A DNA stretch of 64,000 bases from Escherichia phage Eps7. A program made the position numbers and the translations under genes. A model generated the notes under the pieces. The model made no database searches and had not been told where the DNA came from. It saw only the letters and a list, made by a program, of their open reading frames with translations. The DNA lies in sequence record NC_010583.1. The stretch is one strand, 5' to 3'. Position 1 is the first letter of the stretch. Each line of letters begins with the position of its first letter. Shown here one piece after another: positions 13,402 through 62,901 of this stretch.

Positions 13402-13587
13402 ATGGTGAAGAAGATTTTTAAGGGTATCTGGAAAGGTCTAGTATGGTTTGTCAACCTAATCGGTATGATTACCATTTATTCTCTGTTCCTATCTGTTATG
13501 TGGGGTAAAGGTGAATTGAAGGTTCCAGTTCCTTTTACTGATGAAGTTAAAGTCTGGACGTGGGATGCTACTGGTGGAAATAAGTAA
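13402..13587 (+). CDS. small membrane protein (61 aa)
   Basis: AAGGAGGGAGAAT-ATG RBS; hydrophobic segment GLVWFVNLIGMITIYSLFLSVMW. Confidence 0.4.
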   Translation: MVKKIFKGIWKGLVWFVNLIGMITIYSLFLSVMWGKGELKVPVPFTDEVKVWTWDATGGNK

Positions 13588-14080
13588 TACTCCTATAATT
13601 TTCCTGGATATTGATGGGGTGCTCAATTCGAGCATCTCTCACCATCATGCTCCAGATAGTGAAAAGCTATTCTTTGGTAGTGATTGGGTTTATAAGCCAT
13701 TACTCCAGGCTTTTCAGAACTTCCTTAAACCTTCTCCAATAATGATTGTTGGGGTATCTTCATGGTTTTCTGTACGAAACGAGATGGAGAACGTCCAGAG
13801 TATGACCGGGCTCGGTTTGATCGATCGTTTTCTTGGTACAACAGATTTTACTGGTGGCGGTTTATCTCGTGGTAATTCTGTCTTACGTTTCGTAGAAAAA
13901 CATAAGCTCAAGCATTGGTGCGTCCTAGATGATGCTGGTGCTATGATGTATCAATTTCCTACTGTTATTGTAAATGGCAGGACTGGAATAAACCTTCAAG
14001 ATTTAAATGCTATCAGCTATATGCTGGAGTTTAGTCCAGATCTTGAAATGTGTAAGGCTCTTCAGAAACTCAAGGTGTAA
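13541..14080 (+). CDS. HAD-superfamily phosphatase-like protein
   Basis: IIFLDIDGVLN (DxDG[V/T] motif I); true start may be ATG 13565. Confidence 0.6.
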   Translation: MKLKSGRGMLLVEISNTPIIFLDIDGVLNSSISHHHAPDSEKLFFGSDWVYKPLLQAFQNFLKPSPIMIVGVSSWFSVRNEMENVQSMTGLGLIDRFLGTTDFTGGGLSRGNSVLRFVEKHKLKHWCVLDDAGAMMYQFPTVIVNGRTGINLQDLNAISYMLEFSPDLEMCKALQKLKV

Positions 14081-14082
14081 AT

Positions 14083-14511
14083 ATGTTCGATAATCTTTTC
14101 ATGAAAGAGGTAAACCCTATGCTCCTCAACTTCTGGCGATCTCTCCCTGATGGTATGTATAATGAAACCATCAATCTGCTCAAGATTTGGTGTGAGAATA
14201 ACGATATCTTCTTATCCTTTAAAGGCCCACTAGAGGAAGCTCCGTGTATTGGAGTTAGCGTGGATTTAGGGGAGGGAGTAGAAGAGATTGTAGACTGGAA
14301 AGAACTAGATGAAATGGGTCTGGTTTTTGCCTTGAACCATAAGCTGTTTATGCCTGCAAATCACCGTCTTATTGTAAACTATCGCACTGGTGAAGCTCCT
14401 GCTTTCCAGGTAAATGAACGGGAGGGCTGGTCATATTCGCCCGAAGAAGTAAATGAGGGGATTCAGAAACTTCGTCGTTTCGGGTATATGATCCCAGGTT
14501 TAACTGCTTAA
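14083..14511 (+). CDS. hypothetical protein, tandem paralogue A
   Basis: shares W-EL-EMGL-ALN ... TGE-P ... R-GY-PGL pattern with the next ORF. Confidence 0.55.
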   Translation: MFDNLFMKEVNPMLLNFWRSLPDGMYNETINLLKIWCENNDIFLSFKGPLEEAPCIGVSVDLGEGVEEIVDWKELDEMGLVFALNHKLFMPANHRLIVNYRTGEAPAFQVNEREGWSYSPEEVNEGIQKLRRFGYMIPGLTA

Positions 14512-14520
14512 GGAGGCAGA

Positions 14521-14916
14521 ATGGAACAAGTATTTTGGCGTCAGATAGATCCTAGTTTGGTAGAGCGTGCTGAGGGGCTCCTTGCACGTTGGTTGGGGGT
14601 TGACAAGGTTAGTGTAACATTTCCGTTTACTTCTGTAACAGACCCTAGTGTAGGTGTCTTTGTGGACGAAGATGAAGATGATGGTTGGGAAGCTGACTGG
14701 AATGAATTGTCCAGTATGGGCTTGATTGTTGCCCTCAACTTCTCTATATTCCACCCACGTGGTTTAGCTATTACACGTGATCCCGAAACCGGTGAATCCC
14801 CTTATCTTTTGCAAGTAGAAGATGATATTTGGGAGTACACCGAAGATATTCTCGAAGAAGCTAAAGGTCAATTAAATCGCATTGGGATCTATGTTCCAGG
14901 CCTAAATGATGATTGA
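14521..14916 (+). CDS. hypothetical protein, tandem paralogue B
   Basis: paralogue of 14083..14511; AAGGAGG RBS. Confidence 0.55.
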   Translation: MEQVFWRQIDPSLVERAEGLLARWLGVDKVSVTFPFTSVTDPSVGVFVDEDEDDGWEADWNELSSMGLIVALNFSIFHPRGLAITRDPETGESPYLLQVEDDIWEYTEDILEEAKGQLNRIGIYVPGLNDD

Positions 14917-14939
14917 TTTTCATTAGTCCAATCCTGATT

Positions 14940-14967
14940 ACCGAGTCATTTTGGCTCGGTTTTCTCT
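14940..14967 (+). terminator. rho-independent terminator
   Basis: ACCGAG-TCATTTTGG-CTCGGT followed by TTTCTCT. Confidence 0.6.
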
Positions 14968-15010
14968 GTGCTCAAAGACACTGATAGCACCTTACGGAAA
15001 AATTTTACTT

Positions 15011-15038
15011 GCAGGATGGTCAAAATCTTGATATAATA
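15011..15038 (+). promoter_or_regulatory. T5-type promoter with extended -10 (TGATATAAT) and downstream ATTTATATTGAATTGAGAGAC box
   Basis: sequence match to the promoter family; no ORF follows for ~500 nt. Confidence 0.6.
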
Positions 15039-15533
15039 TTTATATTGAATTGAGAGACATTAGTAAAAATTGATTTTGCTAATTTTTCTTGTTTACAATC
15101 CGCAATACGGAACAGTTAGGCTGCCCCATTAAGGGTTGTTTTAACTATTACTAGTGTTTATACTGCATTAGTTAATTATCAATTAAGTGATCTGCGTACC
15201 CTGAATTCGGAAAGGTAAATCCAAACCGTGCATATTTAGCTCGTTATATAGGCAGAGCTTTATATGGGGGTGCGAACGAAAAGAGCAGCGAATGGTGACA
15301 CGTCCAGTAGCCACCTACCAATAGGATAGTGAGGGCAATCAGAATCGGCTTAGCGGCCAATGACCTAGGTTCTGATCTGGATAAGAGTTAAGAGAGCGCA
15401 GCACTGAGGTATGATAACTTATTCATACTGCTTGATGATGATTAATGTTTGTGTAAATGGTAGTAATAGTTGTTCTATTCTTTTGAATAGTCCTAAAGAA
15501 AGATATTCGAATAACCAACATAGGAGTATTGTT

Positions 15534-18323
15534 GTGTTCTCAATCCTACAAGGTCACGCAGGATTTTCCAGAGATAAAGCTACTGGCATCTGGAAAGAGA
15601 TCAAAGTGGAAGATTACACCTTTGCAAAGCGATTCTCTAAAGAGCATCCAGAAGGTAAACCAGCTTCCATGCCCTTCAAATTTGATGTACTTGAAGAACT
15701 TGACCCGCAAAACCTTGCTGAAATGTTACCTATCATGCGTCGTCTTACCAAAGACCCGCATATTGTAGCTATTCGTGGTAAATGTTTAGCCCCAAAAGAT
15801 AATGTGCGTCGTACCAGGGGAAACTTTAACGTATCCAATCCTAGTCATATTATTGCTATGGACGTGGATGGTATTGTAGATACTGGTGGCTATGACAAGT
15901 TTAATCTTGTTGGCATGGCACGTCATATTATTAAGATGTTGAATAGTATTAGTGAGGATATGTTTCCTCTTGATGCAGGGTTTATTGCCCATGCATCGTC
16001 TTCGGCTGGATTAAAACCAGGTATCCGAATGCACTTAATGCTAGAATCTAATGTCAAGGTAACGCAGGGACAGTTAAAGTTCTTATTTACATCTATCAAT
16101 GATAGTAGTAAGCAAAAGTACGGCTTTGATATTGCTGACTTAGCTTATTATTCTTCTGTTCAGCTTCACTATTTCGCAGATCCCTTATTTGATGATGGTA
16201 TAGTCGATCCGTTTAAAGCGGAGAATAAACCACGTCTTGTGTATGTTAAGGGTTCGAAGGTAAATCTACCTAATAACCTAGTTGACTTTGAAACAACTAG
16301 AGGTGAGTTTAAAGAAGAGTTCTACTCCTTACTTGACCAAATTAAAGGCAAGAAGGCTGCATCTGATAAAGTGGAAGAAACCATCAGCGAACTAGAAGAA
16401 GCTGAGGATGGAGTGTACCTGCGTATTATTCCAAAACTTTATCACAGAGCGTTAGAAGATGGTGTTGACTTTACGTGGTTAGAACGTGAAATTAAACCAG
16501 CTTTATCTGAGTATATTGCGACTAAAGATAATAGTCGTAATATTCAAGATTACTTTAATAACGGTCGTAAGCAGGCTCTCAAAGCCTTTGTAAATAACTC
16601 CAAACGTGAGATTCCACCAAACTTAAAAGGTGTACCATTAAAACGTCTAGACACAGATTCTCCACCAGAAGTTCCATACCTGAAAATTAACATTGTACCA
16701 CCAAAAGGACATTTAACATTTGTTAAGGCAAGTCTTGGTACGGGTAAAACTACCGCAGTAACTAAGTGGCTAGATGCAGGTGTTCTTCCAGGAAACTTTA
16801 TTGCAATCACAAATACTAGGGCACTTGTATCTTCTAACGCGAAGAAATTCGGTGCTGGCCAGTATGATAAGTCAGTTGATATGCTGAACTTCAAACGTGG
16901 TGCCATTGATCGTATGTCTTCAACTATTCACTCTATCCATAAGTTCAAGAGCTTTGTGGGTCAGATTGATACGATCTTTATTGATGAATGTGACGCAGTA
17001 ATGAATGATCTGTTATTCGCTCCGGTTGTTAAAAACCGTCGTGAATGTATTCAGGTTCTTCGTGATATCCTTATTACTGCTAAAACTGTTATCTTATCCG
17101 ATGGTGATATCAGTGCAGAAACGATTGAAGCCTATGGTTCTTTGATTGATTTTGATAAACCAGTCGCATTTTATAATCACCACCGTAAAATGCTGGCGAA
17201 AGCTCATGCTTATGAATTCCCTGATGAATCCAGTATTTGGGTTGCACTTCAAACATCTTTAGAGATGGGGGAGAAATCAATCCTAGTATCTGACTGTGGC
17301 CCGGATGAACTGAATGAGAAGGGAATGGCATTACGTCGTAATACTGGTGCGTTAGTTAAAGAAATTCACTCAAACTCTACGTCTGATGTAGATATCCGAC
17401 GTATTCTGGATTATACAACTAATGAGCTAATTGATCAACAGATTGATTGTTTATTATGTAGTCCATCTGTAACGAGTGGTGTTGACTTTAACTATTTTGA
17501 TAACGTATTCGTAATCACTAGAACCTCAAACCAAGCGCCAAACATGCGTTTTCAAGCAATCAGGCGCGACCGTGGTGCTCAGAACATTTATTATTTTATT
17601 GATAAATCTACGAGTGGATTTTCTGCGGGTTCCGAGCAATATAATATTGACGAAGGTTGGATTGAGTTAGCCCAACAACTGTACGCACGTCGTCGTGAGC
17701 TGGAATCTAGAAACTATACCAGTACTTTGCGGTATTATCTTCTCGATCAAGGTGCAACTATTGATATTTTCAGTGAAAGCTGGGGAACTATCGAAGGTGC
17801 AGGCAAAGAGTATACAGAAGAGCGAATCAAAGCTATTTTGCACTCAACTCCTGAATATTGCGCACCACGTCATGCAGACGCATATGAAGCTAAATTGCTT
17901 CTGGTTCGCTATTATCATCTGGATTCTATCAAAGATGTAACAGTGGAACATGTTGAACAGTATATCAAGGATAAACCGAATGATCGAGCTGCATTTTTCC
18001 ACAAGATGCACGACATGTTCTGGGAAGATATTAAAAAGTGTTCAAACGTAACAATCAAACCGTTTATCGAAGCTCTTAAGAATAAGAAGAAGGATTTCTT
18101 CCTTAAGACAGGTCAGAGCGCTAACCCAAAATATGCTCGTATGTATCTTGGCATGATGGGTATCGGTAAAGATCTGGATACGGAAAAGATTGTGGACTGG
18201 TACAGAACTTACTGTAAGATCGAATGTATGCCGATTCCAGTTAAGTTTATGACAGACGAAGAACGTCAGATGCACGAGGAAGCTCTTGCTGAATTGGGAG
18301 CTAGAAATGACAGTGAAGAATAA
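15534..18323 (+). CDS. replication helicase (SF2 ATPase) with an N-terminal primase-polymerase-like domain
   Basis: Walker A ASLGTGKTT, DExD box FIDECD, motif VI QAIRRDRGAQ, N-terminal AMDVDG; likely start GTG 15534 with AGGAG RBS (track ORF starts 15411). Confidence 0.75.
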   Translation: MFSILQGHAGFSRDKATGIWKEIKVEDYTFAKRFSKEHPEGKPASMPFKFDVLEELDPQNLAEMLPIMRRLTKDPHIVAIRGKCLAPKDNVRRTRGNFNVSNPSHIIAMDVDGIVDTGGYDKFNLVGMARHIIKMLNSISEDMFPLDAGFIAHASSSAGLKPGIRMHLMLESNVKVTQGQLKFLFTSINDSSKQKYGFDIADLAYYSSVQLHYFADPLFDDGIVDPFKAENKPRLVYVKGSKVNLPNNLVDFETTRGEFKEEFYSLLDQIKGKKAASDKVEETISELEEAEDGVYLRIIPKLYHRALEDGVDFTWLEREIKPALSEYIATKDNSRNIQDYFNNGRKQALKAFVNNSKREIPPNLKGVPLKRLDTDSPPEVPYLKINIVPPKGHLTFVKASLGTGKTTAVTKWLDAGVLPGNFIAITNTRALVSSNAKKFGAGQYDKSVDMLNFKRGAIDRMSSTIHSIHKFKSFVGQIDTIFIDECDAVMNDLLFAPVVKNRRECIQVLRDILITAKTVILSDGDISAETIEAYGSLIDFDKPVAFYNHHRKMLAKAHAYEFPDESSIWVALQTSLEMGEKSILVSDCGPDELNEKGMALRRNTGALVKEIHSNSTSDVDIRRILDYTTNELIDQQIDCLLCSPSVTSGVDFNYFDNVFVITRTSNQAPNMRFQAIRRDRGAQNIYYFIDKSTSGFSAGSEQYNIDEGWIELAQQLYARRRELESRNYTSTLRYYLLDQGATIDIFSESWGTIEGAGKEYTEERIKAILHSTPEYCAPRHADAYEAKLLLVRYYHLDSIKDVTVEHVEQYIKDKPNDRAAFFHKMHDMFWEDIKKCSNVTIKPFIEALKNKKKDFFLKTGQSANPKYARMYLGMMGIGKDLDTEKIVDWYRTYCKIECMPIPVKFMTDEERQMHEEALAELGARNDSEE

Positions 18324-18540
18324 AAAGTGGGAAACAAGGAAGTTTCCAGTAAAAGAACGTAAAACTTCTGTTTACGATACTGCGGAGAAACTATGTAGGG
18401 TTGTACCACCTCGTCTCGCTGGCATCCCTAATGTCTCCATATGGTTACTTAAACAACGGAAGACTCGTGTGTCTCTTCGCATTGGCTTTGAGTTAGATAA
18501 AGTCTATGCTGAACTTGCTTCTTTGCTCAAAGAATCATAA
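18307..18540 (+). CDS. hypothetical basic protein (~77 aa)
   Basis: small ORF overlapping the helicase 3' end. Confidence 0.35.
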   Translation: MTVKNKKWETRKFPVKERKTSVYDTAEKLCRVVPPRLAGIPNVSIWLLKQRKTRVSLRIGFELDKVYAELASLLKES

Positions 18541-22790: not shown

Positions 22791-23550
22791 ACTGAACTGG
22801 AACGTAGAAGGTGTAACCGAGTCTCTGAAAGCAAAAGCCACTGCTCTGGGTGTTGCTGTAATCTCTCAAGAACAAGTAGCTGCTATCGCTGCTGAACTGG
22901 CTACCGAGACTGGTAAAGACGTTACCGCTCGCTCTGTTGGCTCTAAGCTGCGTAAAGAAGGTTTCGAAGTACAGAAAGCTAACGAAGTACAGAAATCCCC
23001 GTGGACTCCTGAGCAGGAAGCTGAACTGGTTGATTTCCTGAACGCTCATGCGGGTCAGTATACTTACGCTGAAATCGCTGCTGCTGTAGCTGGTGGTCAG
23101 TTCGGTGCTAAGCAGGTTCAGGGTAAGATCCTGAGTCTGGAAATGACTGCTTCTGTTAAGCCAACCGAAAAAGCTGCTGCTGTTCGTTCCTTCACTCCTG
23201 ACGAAGAAACTGATTTCGTTAATCAGGTTGTTGCTGGTGCTACTATTGAAGCTATCGCTGCTCACTTCGGTCGCAATATTAAGCAGATCCGTGGTAAAGC
23301 TCTGAGTCTGCTTCGTGAAGGTCGTATCGCTGCTATGCCGGTACAGGAAACTTCAAGTGCTAAAACTCGTGAAGATCTGTTAGAAGGTCTGGATCTGGCT
23401 AACATGACTGTTGCTGAGATCGCTGAGAAAACTGGTAAGTCTGAGCGCGGTGTTAAATCTATGCTGTCTCGTCGTGGTCTGGTTGCTAAGGACTATGATG
23501 GTGCCGCTAAGCGTGCTAAACTGGATGCAAAAGCTGCGGCTGCTGAATAA
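22783..23550 (+). CDS. Ala-rich protein with four internal HTH-like repeats, putative DNA-binding protein
   Basis: repeated ..EIAA..G...V.(S/G)K..SL.. modules; optimal codon usage; 255 aa. Confidence 0.55.
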   Translation: MSKLNWNVEGVTESLKAKATALGVAVISQEQVAAIAAELATETGKDVTARSVGSKLRKEGFEVQKANEVQKSPWTPEQEAELVDFLNAHAGQYTYAEIAAAVAGGQFGAKQVQGKILSLEMTASVKPTEKAAAVRSFTPDEETDFVNQVVAGATIEAIAAHFGRNIKQIRGKALSLLREGRIAAMPVQETSSAKTREDLLEGLDLANMTVAEIAEKTGKSERGVKSMLSRRGLVAKDYDGAAKRAKLDAKAAAAE

Positions 23551-36882: not shown

Positions 36883-39833
36883 TTATGGTAGTTCTGTAAT
36901 TGTTGGAGCATTTCCGTTAAGCATTGATTTTACAAGGTTTTTCAGTTCATATAACTCATTGCGTAATACGTTAATTTCCTCCTGTTGATTATCAATCTTT
37001 GCTTTTTGCTCTTTGAATGCGTTAACAAGAAGTGCGACAACACCATTATAGTTAATGCCTTTGATTGCCTCGCCTTTTGGGTCTAGCTGACCATCGTTAT
37101 TCAAAGAATGAACCGCTTCCGGCAAAACCCTTTCAACATCTTGTGCGATCAATCCAGCCTCAATACTATAAACGCTGTTTTCATCTTCAATTAGATTGTT
37201 GCGCTTGTAGTAAGTATAACCAGTTAGATAATCAATTTTGTCGGATGCCGTTTCGATCTCTTTTAGATGTGCTTTTAATCTAATGTCAGACCTGCTAACC
37301 CAATTTGATGCGCTACCATTTCCAGCACTATCAAAAATAAAGTCAGCGCCCTTAACATAAAGATGTGTTTCAGCGCCGCCAGAAGTCCACGGAACAACAT
37401 CCATGCCAGCTATCCAATCTTTCCCCAATAAACAGATTTAAATATGGCAACCGCAGAATCAAATCCAATGTGCTCAACAAGCAATCCAGACGCACGACTA
37501 CGCCAGTCGGCAAATGAACCACCCTCAACTTGACCAGCAATAAGAGCGTTTGGATCACCGCGCCTAACTCCATTTACATACATACCCCTTGCGTTATCAT
37601 CAACATAAGATGATATGACCCTGTAAGTGTTTATTCCTGATGGAGTCCATGCAAATATTCTCGCTGAATCAGCAAACGCGCTTATGTGACCATCACGATC
37701 CCATTTAAGACCTGAATCATGATCCCCAATTGCTATAGAGTAATCACCAAGAGCCGATTGAGCATCCGGACTTAATAACATCAATTGCCTATCAGATCTT
37801 GCTATCCTGTACCATCCACCCCAAGAGCCAGCACTGCAAATGATACCCCATTTATTACCGTTCATTGCGGTTGCAACAATATTTCCATACTCAACATGAC
37901 CGTTTGCATTTTTACCGTGAACATGCAATTCATACATCCACCAACCAGAGGCTTCAGGTGGTTGATATGTAACAAGTTCTCCGCTTGAGTAATAACCGCT
38001 TTCTGCGTATGTTGACATAAACCCAAGAATGTTTGAATTATTAGGAATAATAATTGCTTGACCACCAACAGGAGTATTTAAGTTCTTTCTTGCTCCAACT
38101 TCAGTATTAGATCCAGTGCCGCCAGCATCAATTGAAAGAGGAATCCATCTTCCAGTTTCATCAGTCCAAACACCCCACGCCGCATCAGGTCTAATTGTGA
38201 TTCGATAAGGTGAGTTACTCCCTGGTGCATACATCATAGTTTCTGTTTCTGTTTGCTTTAAACGATCAATGCCAAAGTTTATTTTTGCGCCCTCAACGTT
38301 TTCAGCACCAGTACCGCCAGCACCAATAGAAAGCGCAGATGTGCTGTTATTGTCATTACGCGCAACGCGCCATTCCCCATTGTTAGCGATCCGTAATTCA
38401 TAAGTCCATGCAGGATTACGAAAAGAATTATAAGCGCCAGCATATTGATCTTTTACAGAATTAACAGCCTCAACTTTTAGCGCCTCCCTTGCAAGGTCTT
38501 TGTTTGCAAGATCATTAAGGTTCTGATCCTTCTTTAACGACGCTTGCATAACCTGTTCTGCTGATGCAGCCGCTGTCTCCGCTCTATCTGCTGCACTGGT
38601 GGCATTAGTAGCTTTCTCTCCTGCTATTGTAGCGCTACCAGCGGCCTCCAGGGCCTTGTCTGTTGCTGTCGTTGCAGCAGTAGTGGCGGTATTTTTAAAT
38701 ACCTCTGCTTCGTCTCTGTAGCCTTTGGTTGTGGTCATCGCTTGCGTAGCTGTATTCGCACTACCTGATGCACTTTGCTGAGCTAGCTTAGCAGCGTCTT
38801 CACTAGCTTTTGAGTTAATTTCACTAGTCTTTGTATTAGTTTCTGAGTTTTTTGCTGCTAATGCTGATGTGGAGGCTTGTGCAGCGAATGCTTCTGCTTC
38901 ATCCCTGAATCCTTTGGAGTCAGAAGCAGAGGCAGCGGAATCAGCAGCATTAGTCTCACTAGTTTTTGCTGCTGCTGCATATGCTGCTGCATTAGTCTCA
39001 CTAGTTTTTGCATTAGTCTCACTAGTTTTTGCATTAATCTCACTAGTTTTTGCTGCAGCTGATGATTCTATAGCAGTAGTTTCACTAATTTTTGCTGCAG
39101 CTGATGATTCTGCAGCTTTAGTAGCGGATGCAGCAGATTGAGAAGCAGAAATAGCAGACTGAGAAGCAGAAGCTTCAGAAGCTTCAGCAGAAATAGCAGA
39201 TTCATTCTCAGAATTCTTAGCATTAAGTTCTGAAGTCTTAGCAGCTATCTCGGAGTCTTTTGCAGTAGTAGCGTATTCTCCCGCCTCTGTAGCAGAACCA
39301 GCAGCAGCAATAGCCTGATTGGTAGACTCAGTAGCAGATGTAGCAGCATTTTGCTCAGAAGTAGCAGCAGCAGTCTTAGCAGCCTCAGCGTCCTTCTTAG
39401 CTTGTTCAGCTAATAGACGACTCTGTTCAGCATTTTGTGCAGCAAGTTCAGCAGAATCACGGAATCCTTTGGATTCCTCAGCTGACGTAGCAGAGGCATC
39501 AGCACTATCTTTAGATAAACCAGCTTGTCTCTCCGCTTCAGTAGCAGAAGCAGCAGATTGAGTTGCAGAAGTTTCTGAAGAGTTAGCGTAAATTGCAGCT
39601 AGGTTCTCCGAGTCCTTAGCATTTGTTTCAGATTCTTTTGCTGCAATTTCAGAATCTTTTGCTGCCGCAGCAGAAGCAGCAGAGGCCTCAACAGCCCCTG
39701 TTAGTTCACTAGCAGTAATAGAACTAATAGAAGTACCTAAAACTACCGTATACTTAGGATATTTACTAGCAGTAGTTGTAGTGTCATCTATGTTCAGAAT
39801 CTGCTGTACAATAATTTTAGTTTTAAGTGCCAT
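36883..39833 (-). CDS. ltf: L-shaped tail fibre (pb1-like) with C-terminal intramolecular chaperone domain, frameshifted
   Basis: Ala/Ser/Thr-rich fibrous repeats, then a Gly-rich globular domain, then chaperone motif IEAGLIAQDVERVLPEAV; frame break at C4/G4 (37423-37426). Confidence 0.8.
38947..39115. repeat. 21-bp tandem repeats inside the tail fibre gene (encoding KTSETNA heptads)
   Basis: ATTAGTCTCACTAGTTTTTGC x3 in tandem at 38990-39052 plus further partial copies. Confidence 0.7.
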
Positions 39834-60860: not shown

Positions 60861-62548
60861 TTACCAAGGTTTTTTATTATAAATATATCCATTTCTACGA
60901 AAAGCCATCTCATCAGGTCTACTAGCCCACGTTTGGGTATAGCTATATGAAGTTGTACTGTGATATGGTACTAGATAGCCAGGTGGCAGAGTAAGAATCT
61001 GATGAAATACACCATCACCAGCTGTATAACTTTGTTGACGTCTACCTTGTACCTGCCAAGCACTACCACCGTAAGTACGTACAGGCATACCAGCAGTATT
61101 AAGATTACCCATAATAACTTCAGTAGTTAATATAACAGTAGAGTGAGCATTTGGTAATCCCAACCAAACTGTAGCCAAAGGTGTGTAGAAGTCACCAGCA
61201 CCAGGGTAGGATGGAGTTATATCATCCCCAACATAAGTACTCGCAACGTTGCCTGGGAATAATCTAAGTGGTACGGTACTAGGACTCCATACAGGGCCAT
61301 GCTCATTACCTATAGAGTTGGTATTAGTATCTACATACCACTGTTTACCAACACCAAATTTATAAAGGCTAATTTGAGAAGCAGCACCCCCATAGTTAAC
61401 AGGAGACCACAAACCCCCATTACTAGAGCCGATAAATTCACATCGTGCAGTATTATCACCAAAAACTCCGGTATACGCGGTATTATTACCAACATACTCC
61501 ATATCAGGGCGATAACCTAAGTTTCCAAAAGCATTCTGGTTAATAAATTTATAGCCTGAGTTGGGTAAGCTAACACCTTTAATAGTAAAGTTAGATGGAG
61601 ATATCAGGATATCTGAACCAGTAAATGGATTACCAGAAATCCCCATACTACCATTAGAATAGCGTAGATTTAGCACATACCAAATAACTTTAGTAGGTGT
61701 AACATTATACCAGTCTTGCACATATACCTTTCTAGCTGACTGAGCAGCCATATTAGAAGTAGAACCTCTACAAACATATATTTTTTCTGGGTATGCAGGA
61801 GATTGGTAAAGAACGTTTACGTTATCTGGTAGTACTACCTTTTTTTACCGGCAAAGCCACGAATATTGGAACTACAAACGTAAAACCAATCATGACCTCT
61901 ACCAGCAGACCCGATAGGCGCTTGCCAGTTAGGCTCCCAATAGTCTGCATTACCACCATCTATAGGAACTGTAGATACACCCGTTGGAAAGCCCATTAAT
62001 CCCCAGGCTCTAGAAATAGCTTCACCAGCAGAAACACCACCAGGTCTAAAGATCTGGAAACCGGAAGATTGTAGCAAAGTACCGCCAGTTCCTTGTCTAG
62101 CAATAGATTCCTCATGACCTAGGCTACCATTATAAATATAGGTACCATGAGCTAAACTATCACCGATTGCAAAGGCAGATGTTATTGCCAATTCAGCACC
62201 AGCACGTGGTTGGTCTTCAAAGAATGTTAAAAACTGGCCAACCTGAGATTGTGTACCATTAAGGAAACCCCTATGAGTACCGTTTATCTCAATAGCAGTT
62301 AATATAACTCTACCAGGATCATTGGATTTAATGTTTATAATATCCCAAGGCATCTGAGTAACAAAATACCCATTACCTGCATCACCTAGAGCAGCCTCGT
62401 AAGTCCCATCAACTAGGACAAATGGCATATCTGAGTGGAAGATACTATTAGTATTTGGAGAGTAGTGCTGATTTATATCACCACCATTAGCAGCGTTTAG
62501 AGATAATACAGTTTTACCATCACTAAATTTTCCTGCGAAAAAACTCAT
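60861..62548 (-). CDS. receptor-binding tail protein (functional analogue of T5 pb5/Oad), frameshifted
   Basis: 237-aa and 296-aa ORFs join (~560 aa) if the T7 run (61840-61846) is read as T8; divergent from an Llp-like lipoprotein gene. Confidence 0.6.
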
Positions 62549-62573
62549 ACAATCTCCTTCTTTAAAAATGTAT

Positions 62574-62602
62574 TTGCTTAGATCCCTCTATTTTGCTATA
62601 AT
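62574..62602 (+). promoter_or_regulatory. T5-type early promoter TTGCTT-17-TATAAT with downstream ATTTATAAATTAAACAGAGGAACG box
   Basis: sequence match to the promoter family. Confidence 0.65.
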
Positions 62603-62631
62603 ATATTTATAAATTAAACAGAGGAACGATT

Positions 62632-62901
62632 ATGAAAAAGTTACTAGCCATCGTAGTTGCAGCAGCAGTAGTGTTGACGGGTTGTGTACCAGCTCCCGAG
62701 CCATTCTGTAAGGCATACGTGAAGTCTTATGGTCATGTTGGTGAAGAACACTATGCTTTAGATATTCGAGAAGCACGTACTGTGGGCTACCGATTCCCTA
62801 AAACTCAGTTACGCACTAAGTTTGGGTGGTGGGATTTGTCACAGTTTGCTCTCAAATATGGCGATTGCAAATTTAAACTAGAACAATCTGGTCACTTGTA
62901 A
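62632..62901 (+). CDS. llp: Llp-like lipoprotein (putative receptor-blocking superinfection-exclusion protein)
   Basis: signal peptide MKKLLAIVVAAAVVLTGC with LTGC lipobox; 89 aa; divergent from the receptor-binding protein gene. Confidence 0.75.
   Translation: MKKLLAIVVAAAVVLTGCVPAPEPFCKAYVKSYGHVGEEHYALDIREARTVGYRFPKTQLRTKFGWWDLSQFALKYGDCKFKLEQSGHL

Follow-up and report, generated by a model that had tools for sequence, protein, structure and literature searches.

Which function could account for the long gap that T5-like phages keep in front of their D2 gene? This question was addressed in a 64,000-nucleotide (nt) stretch of the T5-like Escherichia phage Eps7 (NC_010583.1), hereafter the window, whose coordinates are used throughout. 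The island under study spans positions 14917–15533 (617 nt), from the stop codon of the upstream open reading frame (ORF) at 14916 to the GTG start of D2 at 15534. An earlier note, made from the letters alone, had described a non-coding island of ~600 bp with a terminator, two promoters and a GC-rich core, and had proposed a structured non-coding RNA, a long leader of the helicase gene or a replication origin. Covariation across nine phage lineages strongly supports the first proposal, i.e. the core of the island is predicted to form a conserved, structured RNA of the + strand.

The folded domain and its conservation

The island was correctly delimited: its longest open frame is 43 aa and no ORF within it is conserved. 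In all 32 related loci from IMG/VR, an ORF-free gap of 530–890 nt lies upstream of D2. The GC content rises to 0.50–0.52 at 15250–15400 compared with ~0.40 around it, in agreement with the proposed GC-rich core. The island was matched by 534 phage records, nearly all of them T5-like (Demerecviridae) phages of Salmonella, Escherichia and Klebsiella, with Salmonella phage S116 the closest (99.8% identity). Across more than 500 GenBank genomes, the region is left blank, filled with spurious small ORFs, or overlapped by a D2 start placed 41 codons too early. The T5 record (NC_005859) annotates only a terminator and a promoter in the region.

Structural conservation was assessed from 33 distinct intergenic sequences, to which Klebsiella-type loci (L035–L037) and the locus of Pectobacterium phage My1 (L038) were then added via a protein profile. 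The nine lineages compared include type A (the window and T5), type B (L017–L027 and L032), the Klebsiella type, My1, the Proteus type (L029/30) and the Providencia type (L033/34). As an unbiased test, a MAFFT alignment was analysed with RNAalifold, with pairing partners slid by 1–3 columns as the control, and 500 shuffles were run. Compensatory (both-side) changes were found in 27 of the 51 pairs, compared with 8–12 in the slid controls, and 94.4% of cells could pair (32–50% when slid). On none of the measures did any of the 500 shuffles reach the value observed. When the P6 hairpin was aligned with MAFFT, its 3′ side lost register. In a curated core alignment of 17 distinct sequences from five lineages, 98.9% of 748 pair cells paired (36–46% when slid) and 39 of the 51 pairs were doubly changed; this alignment was fitted to the structure and leans towards it, and the unbiased alignment agrees.

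These counts bear on the idea that the island has no dedicated function, being a recombination scar, a fast-evolving spacer that folds by chance, or a site of small unannotated protein genes. Several GenBank records do carry small hypothetical ORFs here, and the core is only 41–59% identical between close phages. However, 27–39 of the 51 pairs are compensatory with far lower control values, the domain keeps a constant size in nine lineages, the core is more conserved within a type than the neighbouring genes, and no ORF is conserved. We therefore consider a functionless island very improbable.

The pairs also indicate which strand is folded. The curated helices contain 109 G·U pairs and a single A·C, compared with 61–123 G·U and 30–78 A·C in the slid controls, and a table of helices from all nine lineages holds 377 Watson–Crick pairs, 44 G·U and no A·C. 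Since G·U is frequent and A·C nearly absent, the structure is assigned to the + strand, the sense strand of D2. The strand call was based on these counts because the D2 coding sequence shows the same lower + strand folding energy, and the energy bias alone is thus unspecific. Covariation gives the same signal for an RNA and for + strand DNA and cannot tell them apart. We favour RNA because this strand is the one read from a conserved promoter, G·U wobbles make up ∼15% of pair cells, RNA-type tetraloops (cUUCGg and GNRA-type) occur in several lineages, and the fold is more significant when computed for RNA (z = −5.26) than when computed for DNA (z = −2.85).

Folding of the leader, which the earlier note had suggested, gave a result beyond chance: for 15044–15533 folded as RNA, z was −5.3 (+ strand) and −2.7 (− strand). 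An inverted repeat (15143–63 with 15451–71) closes the region, and the resulting domain (15143–15471, 329 nt) consists of a closing stem, P1, that encloses ∼250 nt with at least eight helices and a covarying pseudoknot (Table 1). The P1-closed domain measures 312–332 nt in 9/9 lineages and always lies directly upstream of D2, and the span between the P2 strands is 206–215 nt in the lineages measured. P1 itself is AU-rich and 27–42 bp long, with unrelated sequence across the nine lineages. Across the nine lineages, compensatory substitutions preserve this architecture and leave the primary sequence nearly unconstrained.

Table 1. Predicted features of the island and the adjoining gene (window coordinates).
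Feature	Position	Strand	Basis or remarks
Intrinsic terminator of upstream operon	14940..14966	+	Stem ACCGAGTC/GGCTCGGT, then T-run; terminator scan
Strong early sigma-70 promoter	14997..15044	+	A-tract, −35 TTGCAG 15009-14, 17-bp spacer, −10 TATAAT 15032-37
Second promoter-like match, TTGATT-18-TACAAT	15070..15099	+	9/12 match; inside H1 3′ arm
H1, AU-rich 5′ hairpin beginning with conserved UUGAGAG	15052..15090	+	RNA folds; directly after start site
H2, nearly invariant hairpin GGAACAGUUAGGCUGCCCC, outside closing stem	15109..15127	+	Helix 1 of unbiased alignment
P1, closing stem, 37 bp in segments 11+9+10+7	15143..15182 (5′ arm) / 15432..15471 (3′ arm)	+	Fold, compensatory changes
P2a (AGUG/CACU)	15186-89 / 15402-05	+	
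P2 (CUGCGU/GCGCAG)	15192-97 / 15396-401	+	
P3, closes three-way junction (P3/P3a/P3b)	15198-202 / 15267-71	+	Junction spans 15198..15271
P3b hairpin, loop carries pseudoknot 5′ half	15238-42 / 15255-59	+	
Pseudoknot joining the loop of P3b with the 3′ internal loop of P6	15249-52 (UAGG) / 15364-67 (CCUA)	+	Covariation
P5 of P5-P5a-P6 arm	15302-07 / 15377-82	+	Arm spans 15302..15382; helices 6 and 7 of unbiased alignment
P6 lower stem	15338-46 / 15368-76	+	3′ internal loop 15359-67 holds pseudoknot 3′ half
P6 upper stem	15347-50 / 15355-58	+	Capped by invariant loop UAGC 15351-54
P7 hairpin	15408-14 / 15423-29	+	Loop UAACUUAU in type A, GUUGCCACCCC in other lineages
H3, small hairpin CUAUUC-UUUU-GAAUAG	15475..15490	+	Between domain and D2 RBS
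Ribosome-binding site (RBS) AGGAG (15522-26) and D2 gene, GTG 15534 to stop 18323	15522..18323	+	AEP-like N-terminal domain and UL9-like SF2 helicase

Individual helices illustrate this pattern. P2 occurs as CUGCGU/GCGCAG, CUGUGU/GCACAG, CUACAU/GUGUAG, CUAGAA/UUCUAG, CUACAC/GUGUAG and GCUAACAG/CUGUUAGC. P3 occurs as ACCCU/GGGGU, CCCGU/ACGGG, UUCGU/GCGAA, UGCGG/CCGCG and AGUAGG/CCUACU, with 100% of cells paired and double changes in 4/5 pairs. The pseudoknot takes the forms UAGG/CCUA, UGAGG/CCUCA, UAAGG/CCUUA, UUAAGG/CCUUAA, CAUGU/ACAUG and AUCAGA/UCUGAU; in the curated alignment it was 96% paired, again with double changes in 4/5 pairs. In P7 (helix 8 of the unbiased alignment), 3/3 pairs were doubly changed. 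The tip of P6, CTTAGCGG, with the hairpin tip CU[UAGC]GG, is invariant in 11 sequences from the nine lineages.

Among the 33 aligned sequences, phages that are otherwise near-identical carry a core of one or the other of two sharply differing kinds, type A or type B. The closing stem compensates between them (ACUAUUACUA/UAGUAAUAGU compared with ACUGUUACGU/ACGUAACAGU). The window core is 87–95% identical to that of T5, where the surrounding coding DNA is 66–88% identical. Compared with type B, the core is 41–59% identical, whereas the segment with the promoter, H1 and H2 is 99% and the genes 75–90% identical. From this pattern, the domain appears to be an exchangeable cassette under strong constraint within each type. 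The Proteus and Providencia types keep the domain even though their D2 is only 59–64% identical.

The transcript and the D2 gene

The island begins with a terminator, as the earlier note had stated: a scan found a GC-rich hairpin at 14940–14960 followed by the T-run TTTTCTCTGTG, the arrangement of an intrinsic terminator, and a terminator is annotated at the same place in NC_005859. A similar hairpin and T-run follow the upstream gene in T5-type and Klebsiella/Pectobacterium-type loci. The genes that precede the island (13541–14916) encode two DUF7415 paralogues and the HAD domain (PF18143) found in 'Swiss Army Knife' RNA-repair proteins. Relatives carry Sir2-like genes further upstream, and the terminator parts the upstream genes from the RNA.

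The claim of two promoters was borne out in part. At 15009–37, the hexamers, 17-bp spacing, A-rich tract and conservation are those of a T5-type sigma-70 early promoter. An equivalent (TTGCAx or TTGACA-17-TATAAT) is present in 9/9 lineages, with a 12/12 consensus match in the Proteus-type locus L029, and the T5 and S114 records annotate it as a promoter. Transcription would start near 15044. The second candidate, at 15070–99, is probably not a functional promoter. We did not count it because it is a weak 9/12 match, is not conserved and falls within an arm of the conserved H1 hairpin; the match is confined to types A and B, and the Klebsiella-, Pectobacterium-, Proteus- and Providencia-type lineages show either a degenerate version of it or none.

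Further small hairpins flank the domain. The H1 stem shows a compensatory change in the Klebsiella-type locus L037, from UUAGUAAAA/UUUUGCUAA to UUAGACAA/UUGUCUAA. H2 was 97% paired, with an almost invariant sequence in five lineages, and is unique in the window. H3 covaries (CUAUC/GAUAG in L035, CUUUCC/GGAAAG in L037) and is not considered a terminator because it has no T-run. In three loci (L015:1960–2060, L018 and L032), an extra ∼97 nt lies between H1 and H2, corresponding to an insertion after window position 15091. This segment is flanked by duplicated TTTTTCTT and holds its own hairpin (AUUUACGG...CCGUAAAU), and may represent either a small mobile insertion or an additional module of the RNA. 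The unit of promoter and H1 is duplicated in L016 (1845–2108), and in L012, L014 and L025 it is preceded by another gene, an ORF of 168 aa. It therefore seems to be a recombination joint.

The downstream gene is annotated in T5 as the 'replication origin binding protein' T5.108, with Pfam domain PF02399 at residues 391–533, and on this basis we identify it as T5 D2. Purified D2 is a bipolar SF2 helicase, D2 amber mutants make no DNA, and the protein has been proposed as a replication initiator (PMC3632103). Its N-terminus (15534–16300) models as an AEP primase–polymerase fold, with D110, D112, S155, S157 and H167 invariant. The model, which places an acidic DxD motif and Ser/His motifs N-terminal to the helicase, suggests that D2 is an AEP primase–helicase fusion. 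Database labels for the protein read only 'origin binding protein' or 'DNA primase C'. The GTG/ATG start at 15534 is conserved in all 32 related IMG/VR loci and is also used in the T5 record. Several GenBank records instead start D2 at an in-frame ATG at 15411, which would add 41 codons across P7 and the 3′ arm of P1 and is unsupported by a conserved N-terminus. In T5, the HNH homing endonuclease gene hegI (L043:4819–5301; T5 62318–62836) overlaps the 3′ end of D2. The alignment of the window with T5 breaks at ∼18234–18333 and again from ∼18734, such that gene content after D2 differs.

How might the domain act? We lean, with modest confidence, towards a discrete RNA domain that is co-transcribed with D2, is probably released by RNase III and acts with D2 expression or replication initiation. 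The early promoter would fire rightward and yield a transcript from ∼15044 carrying H1, H2, the folded domain and D2. Host RNase III would then cut P1, releasing a stable RNA of ∼250–290 nt and leaving the D2 mRNA with a new 5′ end, as rRNAs are cut from their precursors. Cleavage of P1 by RNase III is the most likely route because the ends of the domain are joined by at least two turns of AU-rich RNA duplex. The RNA could set the amount or timing of the D2 primase–helicase, or could be the RNA partner of D2 at replication initiation. A task tied to D2 is the most likely since the domain is never separated from D2 while the upstream genes vary.

The domain lies in the 5′ leader of the D2 transcript, in line with the leader proposed for the helicase gene. 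It could therefore be purely cis-acting, controlling only the D2 mRNA and having no separate life as an RNA. In such a role it might shield the 490-nt leader from Rho or RNases, serve as a sensor, or be an operator through which D2, or a different phage protein, autoregulates. The only conserved promoter indeed precedes the domain and the D2 RBS follows it, with no terminator in the intervening DNA, the domain always accompanies D2, and the pseudoknot leaders of the IncI-alpha and IncB rep genes offer a precedent. However, ten or more helices and a pseudoknot go far beyond what known operators need, and no conserved helix sequesters the D2 RBS, which is unpaired or in an unconserved helix. A pairing of the leader with the RBS region (15102–08/15527–33) was seen in one RNA fold and rejected, as it is not kept in other lineages. 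No terminator/antiterminator alternative was seen and a scan found no terminator at 15471–15534, unlike a riboswitch or attenuator. Moreover, the Proteus-type locus L029 has a consensus promoter for D2 downstream of the RNA and still keeps the RNA. A purely cis-acting leader is thus possible, yet we find it doubtful. The constant linkage to D2, together with the separate D2 promoter of the Proteus type, led us to prefer a discrete RNA coupled to D2 over a simple on/off leader. In that locus, the second promoter (L029:2435–2464) is a perfect consensus, TTGACA-18-TATAAT, between the RNA and D2, and ∼230 nt of extra folded sequence follow the closing stem.

Several points weigh against a discrete, D2-coupled RNA domain, in addition to the leaning of the curated alignment and the unspecific energy bias. 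We infer the start site, the RNase III cleavage, the stability of the excised RNA and the link to D2 from sequence. The constant place beside D2 could be mere collinearity of T5-like genomes. Type A, the version in the window, has neither the P4 hairpin nor the GAGAAGUG junction and GUUGCCACCCC loop that are common to type B, the Klebsiella type and My1. The gap itself is also kept in Vibrio and Aeromonas relatives, which have no ORF, or only tiny annotated ORFs of 29–56 aa, upstream of D2. In Vibrio phage JSF10 (L040:1331–2431) this region is 1.1 kb with 49% GC, and in Aeromonas phage TS3 (L042:719–2308) it comprises 1.6 kb without ORFs, where three hairpins of the (C/U)UUAGCGG kind are accompanied by a long one followed by U6 at ∼2183–2224. 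Compared by eye, and with homology not established, these regions may be much larger relatives of the RNA.

The replication-origin question

The earlier note had also raised the possibility of a replication origin. Two variants, which we judge jointly unlikely, were considered. In the first, the strong promoter would yield a primer or an R-loop, as with ColE1 RNA II or T4 oriF/oriG; in the second, the displaced + DNA strand would fold in the same way and form a single-strand priming site for D2, similar to a plasmid single-strand origin (sso). The position of the island is suggestive, since it lies directly upstream of the essential, initiator-like D2 with its AEP primase fold at the N-terminus and falls at 48.4–48.9% of the 121,750-bp T5 genome. 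According to a preprint (bioRxiv 10.1101/866236), the origins of T5 lie close to the centre of its DNA. For the single-strand variant, the structure is strand-specific, the + strand also folds as DNA (z = −2.85), and the TAGCGG hairpin tip resembles the CS-6 (TAGCGA) loop of plasmid single-strand origins.

In contrast, the usual marks of an origin were not seen. The island contains no iterons, no repeated 8-mer and no repeat family. Only one DnaA-like box (one mismatch) was found within it, compared with 26 in the whole window, and there was no cluster. The cumulative GC skew rises steadily through 15 kb, with the switches at ∼9 kb and ∼36 kb lying elsewhere, and a scan detected no antisense promoter. 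The ∼15% of G·U pair cells and the cUUCGg tetraloops suit RNA over DNA. In addition, the strand bias of Recombitron editing in T5 fits unidirectional replication from one end (PMC10055335), which counts against a central origin.

A bolder version of the RNA reading has the RNA as an active partner in starting T5 replication, i.e. a cofactor, primer or loading platform for D2 at a locus that is also the central origin, or else as a new ribozyme or ribonucleoprotein scaffold. We consider this improbable; were it so, core types A and B would be specificity alleles. A complex, strongly selected RNA in front of the essential, initiator-like D2 gives a testable handle on the start of T5 replication and on the site of its origin, both long-standing questions in a phage used as a model for 70 years.

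Likeness to known RNAs and replication systems

The covariance-model search that the earlier note had called for returned no known family. With the 4227 models of Rfam 15, the segment 14000–16500 gave only a chance snoR77 match inside D2 (E ≤ 10), and ten diverse loci gave only terminator-like sRNA matches far under threshold (E ≤ 5). ARAGORN found no tRNA or tmRNA genes in the window or in 11 loci, and in blastn searches the core hit no plasmid and no E. coli genome. In the literature we found nothing specific on a T5 non-coding RNA, the T5 transcriptome or a T5 origin sequence. These comparisons make the RNA a new family, complex and pseudoknotted, which within the searches made is limited to T5-like phages.

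Some short likenesses were considered and rejected. The motif CGGCUUAGCGGCC, which we take to resemble the 3′ strand of CR-V/P4 in E. coli M1 RNA, does not indicate an RNase P RNA: it is a local hairpin with compensatory changes, and the Rfam RNase P models do not match. Mimicry of a Shine–Dalgarno/anti-Shine–Dalgarno pairing was dismissed since the CCUCCUUA/UAAGG form of the pseudoknot, seen in the Klebsiella type, is not general, with CAUGU/ACAUG or AUCAGA/UCUGAU in other lineages. A boxA/nut-like antitermination site at ∼15085–15100 shows partial likeness to rrn boxA and is not conserved. Near-copies of GGCTTAGCGGCC are in excess in the window (7 compared with 1.5 expected), at 23502, 26322, 27821 and 27908 on the − strand and at 39373 and 47936 on the + strand. 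The extra copies are mostly antisense to ORFs and their flanks form no hairpins. The excess appears to be a coding by-product because the reverse complement reads as Ala-Ala-Lys codons in ORFs.

Among replication systems, ssoA-type plasmid origins are likewise non-coding, extensively folded and strand-specific, with TAGCG(N) capping a long hairpin. The tip TAGCGG matches CS-6 (TAGCGT/A) at 5/6 positions, although a 5-mer match can arise by chance. The sso is a DNA element of rolling-circle plasmids, whereas the dedicated promoter, the frequent G·U pairs and the tetraloops typical of RNA mark the domain described here as more probably an RNA. Its context is a T5-like phage of 110–120 kb with its own replisome genes and not a rolling-circle replicon, no search for an RSB site having been made. 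ColE1 RNA II and the T4 R-loop origins resemble the island in having a strong promoter and a structured untranslated RNA of ∼500 nt near replication functions. However, no origin activity is known for the island, neither an RNase H site nor an antisense regulator is known or was seen in it, and RNA II is without a terminal closing stem.

In the IncI-alpha repZ and IncB repA leaders, an activating pseudoknot contacts the RBS region, and an antisense RNA counteracts it. The D2 leader is similar in that a structured leader with a pseudoknot precedes a replication initiator gene. It differs in that the pseudoknot is internal, at least 155 nt from the RBS, and no antisense promoter was found.

RNase III excises rRNAs from rrn precursors and cuts sites in the early mRNA of phage T7. 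As in these systems, strong sigma-70 promoter(s) of the T5-like locus drive a transcript that is not translated, and the sequences to either side of the folded RNA pair into a long duplex. At 37 bp in the window and 27–42 bp in the nine lineages, with helices 2 and 3 covarying, this duplex exceeds the ∼20 bp or more of an rrn-type stem. The sites in T7 are simple hairpins of ∼60 nt, whereas the stem described here encloses a conserved multi-helix core of ∼250 nt and its cleavage is putative.

Lastly, the RNA resembles GOLLD and ROOL in being large, phage-borne and rich in helices with strong covariation. In contrast to these, it is smaller, lies beside a replication gene instead of tRNAs, matches no Rfam model and occurs in T5-like phages only, as searched. 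With it, the few large, ornate RNAs known from bacteria and phages would gain a further family, in a host phage that is easily manipulated by genetics and grows on E. coli.

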